64,000 nt of DNA from the NCBI GenBank assembly GCA_964016885.1, contig OZ024752.1, positions 46,438,001 through 46,502,000 on the forward strand. Reading direction: 5' to 3'. The notes under the pieces are model-generated. The model did not search any database and had not been told where the DNA came from. It saw only the letters and a list, made by a program, of their open reading frames with translations. The stretch is from Eledone cirrhosa. Taxonomy: Eukaryota. This document shows, one piece after another, positions 13,148-45,789 of the stretch (position 1 is the first letter of the stretch; each line of letters starts with the position of its first letter). The position numbers and the translations under genes were made by a program.

Positions 13148-13334
13148 TATTTCTATAATACTAACACATCGAGTACCTTTTTTTTTTAACTGTGATCACC
13201 TTCTGATATACATGGGAAATCGACCTATATATATATATATATATATATATATATATATATATATATATATATATATATATATGAAAGACGTAAAATAAGA
13301 AAATTATAAAAATTAACTTACTTACTAAAATTTC

Positions 13335-13417
13335 ACTCCAACTAATTAGTTTCTGAAAGGGAATAAACATGGTTTCCGAATGGAACCCATGGAGAAAGCC
13401 TTTCGTCATCAGGAAGT
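13335..13417 (-). ncRNA. Hammerhead motif with extended stem II
   Basis: Minus strand: acttc-CTGATGA-c.gaaagg...catgg.ttcc/ggaa.ccatg...cctttc.a-GAAA-ctaattag (palindrome)-TT-ggagt. Confidence 0.65.
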
Positions 13418-14142
13418 CTATTCTCAGGTAAGTTCCCAGGTGATGCGTGGACACAGGGAACTTATACAAAAATAATTCAGTGGATGGAAAAAAGCAAGCG
13501 TGGACTAAATTCCAAGACATTGAAAAAATCACTGCCTACTTGGTCGGTGGCAAATTCAAAAGAATCAATATATATATATATATATATATATATATATATA
13601 TATATATGGGGGAGGGGTCTGTGTGTGTGTGTGTGTGTGTGTGTGTGTGTGTGTGTGTGTGTGTGATAGTATAATTTTCTCATCAAATGTGTCATTTGTC
13701 ATATTTCATATCAATGTTTCAAACTATTTTCTGCTGTGATTTAATGGGATTTAGATAAGCTATAGTTTTTTAAGAATAGTTTTTTCGATCAAACATCCAT
13801 CTCTCTCTCTATATATATATATATATATATATGTGTGTGTGTGTGTGTGTGTGTGTGTGTGTGTGTGTGTGTGTGTGTGTGTGTGTGTGTATATATCCGA
13901 CTCTGGTCACTTTTTCTTTCATTTTCTTCTTGTACAAACCCACACAAATGCGCACACATGTATGTATATATATATATATATATATATATATATATATATA
14001 TATGATAAAGAACAGAAGAGCGTCTACAACATCAAAAAATTTTTTATTGGCTTACAATGTTTCTTCCTTACGTAACCGTATATATTTATATATATATATA
14101 TATATATATATATATATATATATATATATATATATATATATA

Positions 14143-14256
14143 TATAAACTAATATGTATGTGATGAAACACAGATACCAACACATCTGTATATATATTGC
14201 AATATATATACAGATGTGTTGGTATCTGTGTTTCATCACATACATATTAGTTTATA
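14143..14256. repeat. Perfect 114-bp palindrome
   Basis: Centred on ttgcaa (14197-14202); no spacer. Confidence 0.9.
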
Positions 14257-14585
14257 CACGGCTCAGTGGGTATTTTCATCCTTCGAGCTAATTCCATTGT
14301 AAAAGAATTAATTATCTTATTAATATATATATATATATATATATATATATATATAGAGAGAGAGAGAGAGAGAGAGAGAGAGAGAGAGAGAGAGAGAGAG
14401 AGAGAGAGAGAGTGGGAGAGAGAGAGGTGTGTGTGTGAGTGTAATACACTGGTAACACGGCCTTCCAGCATTCAGTTGTGGCATGGTTCAACGCCTGCAA
14501 GAGATACAAGCAACTTTCTTTTGTATCAAAGGTTTATATCCCCAGTTCAGTTCAACTGTATTATAGTTCATATATATATAGGGCC

Positions 14586-14640
14586 AGAAATAGCCGTCGA
14601 AACGGCTTGAGCTCTGCCGTCGGGGTCATACCTTTTCCTA
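14586..14640 (+). mobile_element. Family C fragment
   Basis: agaaatagccgtcgaaacggcttgagctctgccgtcggggtc. Confidence 0.7.
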
Positions 14641-14709
14641 TATATATATATATATATATATATATATATATATATTGGAAAATGTGTGTAATCCTTGGTA
14701 CAGTTAGGT

Positions 14710-14823
14710 ATATTAAGACAGGGGGGAAGAAAAAATGGCTTCACTTGGGCTTTCAACAAATTTGAAAATAAATTTGTTGAGAGCACAAGTGAAGCCATTT
14801 TTTCTTCCCCCCTGTCTTAATAT
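14710..14823. repeat. Near-perfect ~114-bp fold-back
   Basis: tattaagacaggggggaagaaaaaatggcttcacttg...caagtgaagccattttttcttcccccctgtcttaata. Confidence 0.9.
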
Positions 14824-15065
14824 ATATATATATATATATATATATATATATATATGTATATATGGTCTTTCTTTCTCCTTTTCTTTTTTTTTCCCCTATT
14901 CCAACGGCTTAATTTAAATGTATGGGATTTTAACTTTTCCGTCACTAATTTGCATAATAGACCAATAATAATATTAGTAACCCCACTATCCAGGAGCTTC
15001 CAACCAACATGGTCGCATTCTTTTAAGGGTATGTCAATATTTGTTTATAAAACTGATCTATATTA

Positions 15066-41728: not shown

Positions 41729-41834
41729 AATATGGTTTTATAAATATAGTTTCCATTTATTAATATATATATATATATTATATACATAGAAAAAGTTTTG
41801 AGGTTGAATATATATATACAAACTTATTGGCAGT

Positions 41835-41944
41835 CAAATCCAGCCGAGGTTAACTTTGCCTTTCATTCTTACGGAGTCGATAAAATAAAGTACCAGTAAT
41901 GCACTGGGTATTTGCTGGCCTTGTGCCAAAAGTAGAAACAATTA
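41835..41944 (+). mobile_element. SINE family 1, 3' half
   Basis: Matches the consensus. Confidence 0.8.
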
Positions 41945-42229
41945 TATATATAGAGAGAGAGAGAGAGAGAGAGACGTAATATATACTAAGTATGCATATA
42001 TATGTGTGTGTGTGTGTGTGTGTGTGTGTTGTTTGTATTAGGTCAGCAGTTTAAACAAAACCTCAGAGCTCGTGTGTGTTTATCAGAGATGTGATTGAAC
42101 TAGTCTGGTAGTAAGTCCAAGTACGTTTATAATTGACCATCCTATCATCATCACCATCATCACTGTCATTAACAGTTGCAGCATATTCTAATTAATACTT
42201 ACTTACATCTATTACCTCTTACCTCTCCT

Positions 42230-42801
42230 CCTTCCTTACGTGCAAAAGGAAGCTTGTGTGGTGAGACCAACAAAAATTCACTTGCTACCACTATTGTAAA
42301 CTCTCCTCTTTCTACTACCCCTGTATGAGCCACCATGCCAGGTGCTCTCCTACTACGTCATTCAACTCGCGCCATTCCTGACACTCGTCGTTACTCCTGC
42401 TGCTATTCTCGCTATTCGCCACACTCCCACTTCCAGTGAACACCGTGTTATAACATCGACATAGTGAAAAGCATTAACAAAAAAACAACAAAAACATACA
42501 CAAACACACACACAAGAAGAAAAAAAAATATTATTAAATCCCAACATCTTTGTTCAGTTTATAGTAGTATGTTTAACCGTTCGTTTTCTTTACAAAATCT
42601 CCTCCGCCCTCCGTCTCTCACCTCACACACCGGTATCCACAGCCAGACTACTACAGTGACATGTTGTTGTCCTAGCAGAGAAAGAGAACTTTCCCCTCTC
42701 TCGGTCAACCCTCCATCCGCCGCCGGCACCAGCAGCTTTGGAGTGGTTATTGTCTTCTCCAGGCCGGCCTTGCCCCGACGGGCCCTTTCTTGCCTGCTAC
42801 C
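42230..42801 (+). promoter_or_regulatory. Putative SIK promoter / 5' UTR
   Basis: Unique, relatively GC/CpG-richer island directly upstream of the ATG. CRE half-site TACGTCA at 42354-42360 overlaps an Inr-like TCATTC; TACGTG at 42237-42242. The TSS cannot be determined from sequence. Confidence 0.5.
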
Positions 42802-42936
42802 ATGGTCATGGCCAACTCTAACAGTTGTAATATGCAGCAAGCTATTCGGGTGGGATTTTACGATATAGAAAGAACTCTCGGCAAAGGAAACTTCGCCGTT
42901 GTTAAGTTGGCAAGACACCGCCTTACCAAATCTGAG
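42802..42936 (+). CDS. SIK2: First coding exon of a salt-inducible kinase (SIK2/SIK1-like, AMPK-related Ser/Thr kinase)
   Basis: Kozak-like ctaccATGg. Translation [45 protein letters not shown] (45 aa) closely matches the SIK2 N-terminus as recalled (MVMA...[31 protein letters not shown]), including the Gly-rich loop GKGNFAVV. Ends at a canonical phase-0 donor GAG|gtaagt at 42937. Confidence 0.95.
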
Positions 42937-44194
42937 GTAAGTTAAAATATTTTCTTTCCACCAACTTTTGCTCTCTCTATCTGTCCCTGTCCCTGTCTGT
43001 CTGTCTCTATGTTTTGTGGGTCTTTGGTCCCTCACTAAAATAATCTTCTTATCTCGATATTCCATTCTTGGATCCTTTCATAGTCATTATACATTCCATA
43101 TCATTGTATTTATTTGATGACTGATGATAATAAACAAAGGAAAATACGCCAACTCTCATATTTTATCTAACAATATATGTGTGTGTGTGTGTATATATAT
43201 ATATATATATATATATATACACATACACACACATATATATATATATATATACACACACATACACACACACACATATATATATATATATATATATATATAT
43301 ATATATATATATATGAATATATGTATGTATATGGTGGATTGTGTAGATGATGTTTGAGATACACCAACGCATTATATGTGTACATATATTTATATATGTA
43401 TTTGTAAATATATATATATGTATATATGTGTGAGTGTGTATATTTATGTCTGTCTGTGTACGTATAAGTAATATATATATATATATATATATATATATAT
43501 ATATATATATATATATATATATATATAGTGTGTGTGTGTGTGTGTGTATATACTCACTGGTAATACAAGGCAACTTCTGAATATAACTGAATATATATAT
43601 ACACTCACACAGACACACACACACATATATATATATATATATATATACCTCCAATAGAAGGTAACGTCTATAATTGCGTTTCTACTCACACGTATATATA
43701 TATATATAGGTGTATGTGTGTATATTTATGTATATATATATATATATAGGTGTATATTTATGTGTATATATATATATATATATATATTTGTGTACATGTG
43801 AGCTCTGGGTGGTAATTAGAAATTACAACGGCGTGGTTTTTTTACTTAGTAATATTCCTGTACTTGTATATATGTTAAATACTCTTGCTATATGTTATAT
43901 ATATATATATATATATATATATATATATATATAGCAAAAGTATTTAACACATCATATAACATATATGTTATATATACACACATATATATATATATATATA
44001 TACATACATATATATATATATAGTCTATGTTACTGTATATTATATATTAAATACGTCTTACATTGCTGTACAATAAAAACATGAACCGTCAACTCACTTC
44101 ACTCCAGTTATTTACTATTATTTCAATGTTCTAATTTTGGTGAATCTTATCTCATGACCAAACATTGTAACATTATAACTACTACTTCTACTAT

Positions 44195-44430
44195 TATAAA
44201 ATAAAGTACCAGTAATACACTGGGATAATTGCTAGCCTTGTGTCAAAAGTAGAAACAATTATAACTACTACTACTATTATAAAATAAAGTACCAGTAATA
44301 CACTGGGATAATTGCTAGCCTTGTGTCAAAAGTAGAAACAATTATAACTACTACTACTACTATTATAAAATAAAGTACCAGTAATACACTGGGATAATTG
44401 CTGGCATTGTGCCAAAAGTAGAAACAATTA
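44195..44430 (+). mobile_element. Three tandem SINE family 1 3' tails
   Basis: ataaaataaagtaccagtaatacactgggataattgct...agtagaaacaatta x3. Confidence 0.8.
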
Positions 44431-45789
44431 TTAACATAGACAAGTAACACATATACACATTCTCTCATATATATATACATACATGTGTGTGTGTATATAT
44501 ATATATGTGTGTGTGTGTGTGTGTGTGTGTGTGTGTGTGTATATAAGTTTCAGCGATCGGTGAAACTTCGAAGTCACTAAAACCTTCTTACTTGTGGAAA
44601 TATGTCTTATACCTTACATGTATTGAGTACTTGTTCATTTGAGAGTTTAACGCTTTGAACGCTGGTATTTAAAATATTACTGCCAGTAACATGTATAATA
44701 TATATGTGTATATATATGTATATATATGTGTATATATATGTATATATATGTGTATATATATGTATATATATGTGTATATGTATGTATATATATGTGTATA
44801 TGTATGTATATATATGTGTATATGTATGTATATATATATATATATGTGTATATATATGTGTATATGTATGTATATATATATATATATGTGTATATATATG
44901 TGTATATGTATGTATATATATATATATATATGTATATATATATGTGTATATGTATGTATATATGTGTATATATATGTGTATATGTATGTATATATATGTA
45001 TGTATGTGTATATGTATGTATATATATGTATGTATATGTATATATGTGTATATGTATATATGTGTATATATATATATGTGTATATATATATATGTGTATA
45101 TATATATATATATATATGTGTATATATATATATGTGTATGTATGTATGTATATATGTGTATGTATGTATGTATATATATATATGTATGTATATATAAATA
45201 TATATGTATGTATATATAAATATATATGTATGTGTATATGTATGTATATATGTATGTGTATATGTATGTATATATGTATGTGTATATGTATGTATATATG
45301 TATGTATATATGTATGTGTATATGTATGTATATATGTATGTGTATATGTATGTATATATATATGTGTATATGTATGTATATATATATATATGTGTGTGTA
45401 TATATATCTGTGTGTGTGTATAGGTATATATATGTATGTAAAAGGTATACAGAAATAACAACACAATCAGATATATATATATATATATATATATATATAT
45501 ATATATATATATATATATAGGTGTGTGTGTGTGTATATATATGTGTGTGTGTGTATATATATGTATGTGTGTGTATATATATGTATGTGTGTGTATATAT
45601 ATGTATGTGTGTGTATATATATGTGTGTATATATATATGTATGTGTGTGTGTATATATATGTATGTGTGCATATATATGTGTATTTATGAATGAGTATGT
45701 GTGTATATGTATGTATGTATGTATATATGTGTGTGTGTGTGTGTATATATATATGTTGTAACAGTAATTATTACGTTGTCTGTGATATA

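Follow-up and report, generated by a model that had tools for sequence, protein, structure and literature searches.

A doubled predicted hairpin in Hydra-type Penelope-like elements of Eledone cirrhosa as a candidate start signal for reverse transcription

The stretch of DNA analyzed here, referred to throughout as the window, comprises 64,000 nucleotides of the Eledone cirrhosa genome (GCA_964016885.1, contig OZ024752.1, positions 46,438,001 to 46,502,000) and holds remnants of Penelope-like elements (PLEs) that share the 11-nt motif GTATTGAGTAC. As read from the sequence, this motif supplies the 3' arm of a bulged hairpin predicted in the RNA, RCTC-stem-loop-stem-TY-GAGY-RC, located in the tail of the pseudo-long terminal repeat (pLTR). 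The hairpin is carried twice at the junction of the pLTR and the open reading frame (ORF), and it likely anchors the reverse transcriptase (RT) of the element, with copying beginning a few bases 5' of the hairpin. The pairing pattern of the hairpin, its duplication, its fixed offset to both termini and the pairing of one long with one short insertion end are observed directly in the sequence.

The motif as one arm of a predicted hairpin

Within the window, the exact motif was detected at 35435, 35578, 41339 and 44620 on the plus strand and at 16597-16607 on the minus strand, five copies where 0.06 are expected and a count reached by none of 100 shuffled sequences. Together with a variant at 6283-6293 (-) and the variant CATCGAGTAC at 13167-13176 (+), these copies all lie where the initial annotation had placed them. 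Genome-wide (3.0 Gb), the exact 11-mer occurs 94,661 times, compared to 1,015 occurrences of the reversed control word. The copies at 35578, 16597 and 6283 belong to the same family (A), the copy at 35435 to family B and that at 44620 to an old copy of family D, and a C-type tail is present at both 13167 and 41339. The exact plus-strand copies had been described as lying 38-53 nt past a hammerhead cleavage site, and the distances from predicted cut to motif bear this out, being 37 nt (35435) and 52 nt (41339) by computation and 40 nt (35578) and 44 nt (44620) as counted from the sequence, with the hammerhead core at the latter two lacking its 5' half. As none of the 29 relatives of the hammerhead at 41339, which is of another family (F), continues into this C-type tail, that copy is probably a chimera and its hammerhead-to-motif spacing is doubtful. 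For the distance to the (TA)n junction, put at about 45-65 nt in the initial annotation, the values from the motif end are 46 nt in the three family A copies, 41 nt at 35435 and 68 nt at 44620.

The sequence ACTCTRC upstream of the 11-mer is its complement around a 2-nt bulge, and a complementary arm is present 3-9 nt upstream in 71,218 of the 94,661 exact 11-mers. A further 40,839 copies carry an upper stem of the CAG/CTG type (control, 3), for a genome total of over 110,000 hairpin copies. In an unbiased sample of 734 kb, consisting of the window and 67 stretches taken at round coordinates, the hairpin was found within 160 nt downstream of 6 of 33 hammerhead-descriptor matches, among which are some false hammerheads and many short-ended copies, and upstream of none (shuffle expectation 0.04). 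The 11-mer, with up to one mismatch allowed, follows only 3 of these 33 matches, and the conserved unit is therefore taken to be a structure rather than a word; the bare 11-mer was rejected as the signal. The positional part of the earlier proposal of a cis signal stands, with the hairpin as its unit and the 11-mer one sequence variant of it.

Aligned with MAFFT, 28 hairpins from this genome and other animals have 98.3% of 181 cells paired and 39 double-sided changes, as high as in none of 500 shuffles and compared to 21-55% paired in slid controls; because these hairpins were picked by a descriptor demanding pairing, the paired percentage is inflated, a point that counts against the structural reading. 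RNAalifold returned the same 7 pairs, and the alignment contains 7 G-U cells and no A-C cell, which favors the sense strand. A self-fold of the 11-mer through GTA/TAC was also considered and rejected, being 63% paired, no better than shuffles, and showing no covariation. In family F (L222, L230, L236), an apparent hairpin with a long inserted loop (~40 nt) lies just past the usual terminus. When the end DNA of families A and B is compared, the alignment spans 14 nt and covers the motif only, so the two do not align along their full length. This restriction to the motif indicates that it is kept by selection rather than by residual similarity.

Hydra-type elements and their two hairpins

RT or endonuclease (EN) fragments were present upstream of the motif in 2 of the first 30 motif loci, and these led to intact elements. 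At one locus (L091), 3.54-kb units that contain an intact ORF are arrayed in tandem. The family A element has a single ORF of 719 amino acids from its ATG, encoding an RT followed by a C-terminal GIY-YIG-type EN that was recognized by eye, and a Pfam search of this ORF yielded no match, EN included. The predicted protein has an RT/TERT fold, with TERT as its best structural match (E 5e-9) at a weak TM-score of only 0.34. The proteins of families A and B both contain LRWR and SDKT motifs, and family A has CNCPDRSIC as a CxCX5C linker with CNLC (CxxC) and CKH (CxH) in the EN, a pattern repeated in family B; CCHH, as judged by eye, is absent. By these protein motifs and by architecture, A and B are assigned as Hydra-clade-type PLEs, the clade motifs being those of Craig et al. 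2021 (PMC8557442). In its available text, that source describes the same RWR/DKT motifs, CxCX5C linker, C-terminal EN with CxxC and CxH and type I hammerhead, as well as (TA)n targeting, tandem and inverted structure and a one-sided tail. Insertion into (TA)n, tandem and inverted copies and the one-sided tail were all seen in the families studied here.

The proteins of families A and B are 49% identical and hence homologous, so the families are not otherwise unrelated as had been supposed. The further suggestion of a cis element common to one PLE system was borne out: the motif holds a set position past the hammerhead and is also present in autonomous elements. A link to an ORF was established for families A, B and G, the last being a third element of the same kind; families C, D, E, F, H, I and J, from which no ORF junction was recovered, may be non-autonomous. 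No relative was found in the viral contigs searched.

As predicted from sequence, the hammerhead core is canonical in families B, E, F and G and variant in A. The family A core (L092:1301-1395; window 35502-35537) reads TTGAGAA in young copies and CTGAGAA in others, and because it is non-canonical, standard descriptors miss it. In the TTGAGAA variant, positions 3 and 8 would presumably pair as U-A. Family B carries a second motif-like word, TTATTGAGTAC, ~160 nt past the stop codon and followed by a long microsatellite-like 3' untranslated region (L141:5419, L146, L148, L153), and two family B copies are 5'-truncated close to it. Near-identical family B copies with shared flanks lie less than 50 kb from the ends of the chromosome-scale contigs C5, C6, C8, C13, C14, C18 and C19, probably through subtelomeric duplication.

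In read-through junctions, the order is hammerhead, hairpin 1, hairpin 2 and ATG; families A and G have both hairpins, 78 nt (A) and 90 nt (G) apart. Across full-length elements, the spacing between the hairpins is 60-90 nt, and hairpin 2 is found 20-65 nt upstream of the ATG. Hydra-type elements of other animals, recovered from metagenomes and from contaminants of bacterial bins at 34-48% protein identity, have the hairpin at the same place. A covariance model trained on 14 hairpins of this genome was run on 24 such foreign loci (87 kb) and returned 16 matches at E<0.05, all of them directly after a hammerhead or directly before an ATG and including hairpin pairs in two loci (L200 and L211) that had not been picked beforehand. 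This search is a stronger test than pairing in the alignment, as the alignment set was chosen by a pairing descriptor. In all seven foreign elements with an intact upstream region, two model matches lie 61-68 nt apart, with best E values from 2e-5 to 4.6 and L206 a weak case. Among the 6 novel Hydra consensus sequences of PMC8557442 File S7, 4 show the hairpin by eye (Hydra-2_Amil, Hydra-1_Ajap, Hydra-2_Ajap and, imperfectly, Hydra-1_Crog), one carries both hairpins, and the consensus sequences of Hydra-1_Amil and Hydra-1_Obim stop before the hairpin position. Animal Hydra-type PLE contigs with (TA)n flanks are contained in GTDB bacterial bins (L199-L214) as host contamination.

Insertion ends, inverted pairs and the start of copying

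Insertions terminate at two sites, and a hairpin follows each of them after 2-8 nt. End classes and pairs were counted in families A and B, leaving out family E, and 96 of 98 TA-joined ends in A and 68 of 72 in B fall inside the two site windows; these counts cover all loci fetched from this genome by then, and it weakens them that most were picked by motif or ORF. In the unbiased 734-kb sample, 17 of 18 family A ends lie in the two windows. When terminated copies are set against those that read through, identity is lost 2-8 nt ahead of the hairpin at 13 of 15 family-sites; the other two are a mismatched pair (H) and a case without a partner (O). The TA run begins 6-12 nt before the hairpin. 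The PLE tail is the stretch between the two sites, 60-90 nt in length, and contains hairpin 1; the junction 41-46 nt downstream of the motif corresponds to hairpin 2, which the truncated copies in the window lack. The initial annotation had proposed the motif as a signal for RT recognition or 3'-end formation ahead of the (TA)n junction; RT recognition is the best reading, while the geometry points upstream, to ends 5' of the hairpin.

Where insertions are arranged head to head, a long end (with tail) is joined to a short end in 21 of 21 family A cases and in 14 of 16 distinct pairs of family B, the other two having one off-site end. Across the 37 distinct pairs of both families, the long and short combination accounts for 35 of 35 classifiable pairs, and neither long with long nor short with short was observed. 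Of 77 hairpins scanned without regard to family, 23 were found to have an inverted arm, and the hairpin is missing from all 23 of these arms. In L266 and L307, the two arms have no sequence in common. The hammerhead cut was rejected as the usual 5' end of insertions, with only 4 of 67 family A and 1 of 68 family B 5' ends within 3 nt of it. In short stubs of families A and B, the 5' junctions gather 75-87 nt ahead of the motif, within or just before hammerhead helix II and away from the cleavage site.

If each hairpin anchors the RT, integration would likely proceed as follows. A transcript reading through a tandem unit would bear both hairpins, and EN would cut both strands of the (TA)n target. 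The protein would bind each hairpin and begin a few bases 5' of it, with help from 1-7 nt of UA matching the target. Both target ends would prime on the same RNA, one of them at site 2 and its counterpart at site 1, each through a short UA(U) match. Joining of the two cDNAs at their 5'-truncated ends would then give an inverted repeat in which the long arm has a 60-90 nt tail including hairpin 1 and the short arm stops just before hairpin 1. On this reading, the window would show hairpin 1 and never hairpin 2 because the hairpin in use is not copied. In keeping with this, according to the available text of Frangieh et al. 2024 (PMC11167929), the protein of another PLE, the Poseidon element of Anolis (PAc), cuts both strands and extends them; its two internal start sites form the limits of the tail, and it requires RNA ~55 nt 3' of these sites.

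An origin at the DNA level, in which the cDNA from site 2 folds back and copies itself and EN recognizes the hairpin or tail and resolves the product at site 1, is unlikely. It would also explain the long and short pairs, many arm junctions are near-symmetrical at 75-87 nt before the motif, and parts of the literature agree with it, as EN-mediated resolution was suggested as the source of the tail (PMC8557442) and the tail in D. virilis is needed for EN recognition (as cited in PMC11167929). The arms of L266 and L307, however, do not overlap, and because they share no sequence, the short arm is not a fold-back copy of the long arm. Hairpin 2 is spaced equally to its terminus and yet is never copied into the long end, one RNA-level rule covers both sites, and the G-U pairs fit the sense strand.

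We regard as improbable that the hairpin is a protein-binding or translation element, involved in ribonucleoprotein assembly, ribozyme assistance or initiation at the ATG, with the ends set only by UA(U) matches. The placement of hairpin 2 20-65 nt before the ATG and the short TA match at every mapped end are compatible with such a role, as is the dependence of the PAc hammerhead on protein reported in PMC11167929, in the text available. Other TAT words in the tail, however, see little use, with just one A end in 98 and one B end in 72 located inside the tail, and the offset is constant across families with differing spacers.

Also improbable is a model of RNA processing, in which the hairpin causes the RNA to be cut, or its 3' end to be formed, a few bases upstream, and processed 3' ends then serve the RT for priming. 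The fixed 2-8 nt offset would fit this model, whereas separate RNAs would give long with long and short with short pairs, of which there are none in 37, and PAc starts internally on unprocessed RNA (PMC11167929, available text). It is scarcely credible that the hairpin is functionless residual homology or chance: the families do descend from one clade and copy number inflates all counts, but the flanks no longer align while the paired positions covary across phyla-level distances, at 36-43% protein identity.

Several further observations weigh against an anchoring role of the hairpin. Related families inflate the hairpin counts, TA microhomology blurs each end by 1-7 nt, and the short ends of family B are scattered over ~8 nt. 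In all 12 family B junctions, hairpin 2 is reduced to a 4-bp GCAC/GTGC stem, yet the long terminus is precise. Local minimum-energy folding yields the hairpin in 11 of 16 stretches, and those in which it does not are A1 (two copies), B1 and the D copy, so that the highest-copy hairpins are among the exceptions; the hairpin is absent from the folded A tail, the GTA/TAC self-fold is preferred in single-sequence folds of A1 and B1, and one foreign copy folds into the hairpin only partly. Both strands of PAc, which is of a different clade, are reported to use the same start sites (PMC11167929, in part).

The anchoring mechanism predicts that both signals occur only in transcripts that read into the following unit. 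A further proposal, to which we give an even chance, is that Hydra-clade PLEs integrate by programmed twin priming, with two copies of the hairpin placing two RTs on one transcript and each RT extending one (TA)n target end. If so, one rule would yield both the inverted repeat and the one-sided tail of PLE insertions, which have so far been unexplained, and the hairpin would be a portable 25-nt signal setting the start of copying.

Relation to known systems and other features of the window

The choice of start site, the one-sided tail and the inverted arms of PLEs are presented as an open question in the Discussion of PMC8557442, and PMC11167929 offers only a hypothesized binding region for start choice. 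From their sequence, the elements belong to a known clade, and no doubled hairpin located 3' of the start sites came up in the papers searched. Literature searches, including available parts of PMC4209133 and bioRxiv 10.64898/2026.07.22.740005, gave no description of this hairpin, with subscription papers, Repbase and figures outside the search. For the published Hydra clade (PMC8557442, available text), no tail hairpin is described and the tail is 30-40 bp, in contrast to 60-90 nt between two hairpins here, and the units here reach 3.5 kb or more. PAc resembles these elements in having two internal RT starts as the limits of its tail, cleavage and extension of both strands, a need for RNA 3' of the start and an ORF start that overlaps the pLTR end; unlike them, it starts in an AC-rich stem-loop without target homology, and the available text defines no duplicated covarying signal and reports no pairing of long with short ends (PMC11167929). 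With a doubled, covarying hairpin of 20-28 nt at a fixed offset from both termini, start choice can be tested directly in the published in vitro assay. The hairpin would also define the RNA signal of the closest mobile relatives of telomerase, serve as a marker for Hydra-type stubs and predict which copies are still able to act as templates.

Small RNA structures that recruit the RT of their own element include the 3' stem-loops of stringent long interspersed elements (LINEs; UnaL2/ZfL2) and the 3' untranslated region of R2. The LINE and R2 structures lie 5' of the start and are copied, whereas the PLE hairpin is situated 3' of the start, occurs twice and is left uncopied. In L1 twin priming, both target ends prime on one RNA to give an inversion with non-overlapping arms, as proposed here, but the second priming of L1 occurs at a chance internal match, whereas here it would occur at a fixed, signal-defined site. 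An RNA element also fixes the copied register in telomerase, whose boundary element, unlike the hairpin here, sits on the 5' side of the template and halts copying.

Table 1. Elements and hairpins in the window (positions of the 64,000-nt stretch; hammerheads and hairpins are predicted)
Feature	Position	Strand	Remark
Family B inverted arm, stops at short terminus, without hairpin	35303..35353	-	
Direct arm of family B with type I hammerhead (core starting at 35359, cut predicted after 35397), then tail and long terminus at (TA)n	35353..35486	+	
Hairpin 1, family B (ACTC-TGC-loop-GTA-TT-GAGT-AC)	35425..35445	+	motif is the 3' arm
3' end of family A lying inside the (TA)n flank of the B copy: hammerhead 3' half, tail, long terminus	35502..35634	+	
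Hairpin 1, family A	35563..35588	+	
Family A direct arm with long terminus	16551..16687	-	hairpin 1 at 16597-16622
Family A inverted arm, stops at short terminus	16684..16743	+	
Hairpin 1, older family A copy	6283..6308	-	TC bulge
Family F type I hammerhead, helix II long, joined to C-type tail	41172..41286	+	probably chimera
Hairpin 1 of C-type tail	41328..41349	+	one T-G wobble
3' arm of decayed hairpin, old family D copy	44620..44630	+	no model match at E<=5; relatives L247, L250 retain 5' arm
Decayed 3' arm, C-type tail after B-like hammerhead (core from 13104)	13167..13176	+	no model match
Hairpin with CAG/CTG upper stem (family G), without 11-mer	15355..15381	-	model match
Hairpin, CAG/CTG type (family J)	49583..49609	+	model match
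Decayed hairpin, family J	50296..50328	-	model match
Hairpin, GCTC/GAGC type (family I-like)	28439..28467	+	model match

A search of the whole window against Rfam at the gathering score gave no match, hammerhead included, and the matches obtained by E-value alone are microsatellite hairpins. PLE stubs of several families cluster by nesting in one another's (TA)n flanks (window 35487-35501; L159, L102). Neptune-type (CCHH) PLEs with long open frames are abundant in the same genome (L031-L060, L094-L110). In 12 of 17 long GIY-YIG loci (97.5 kb), 4 hairpin matches at E<0.01 were detected, all in separate TA-embedded stubs, the Neptune ends themselves being undelimited. A near-perfect 138-nt inverted repeat at 37147-37286 of the window has no hammerhead match and is possibly a miniature inverted-repeat transposable element, and minisatellite arrays occupy 38416-40481 (53 bp), 23993-24803 (42 bp) and 8676-9551 (35 bp).

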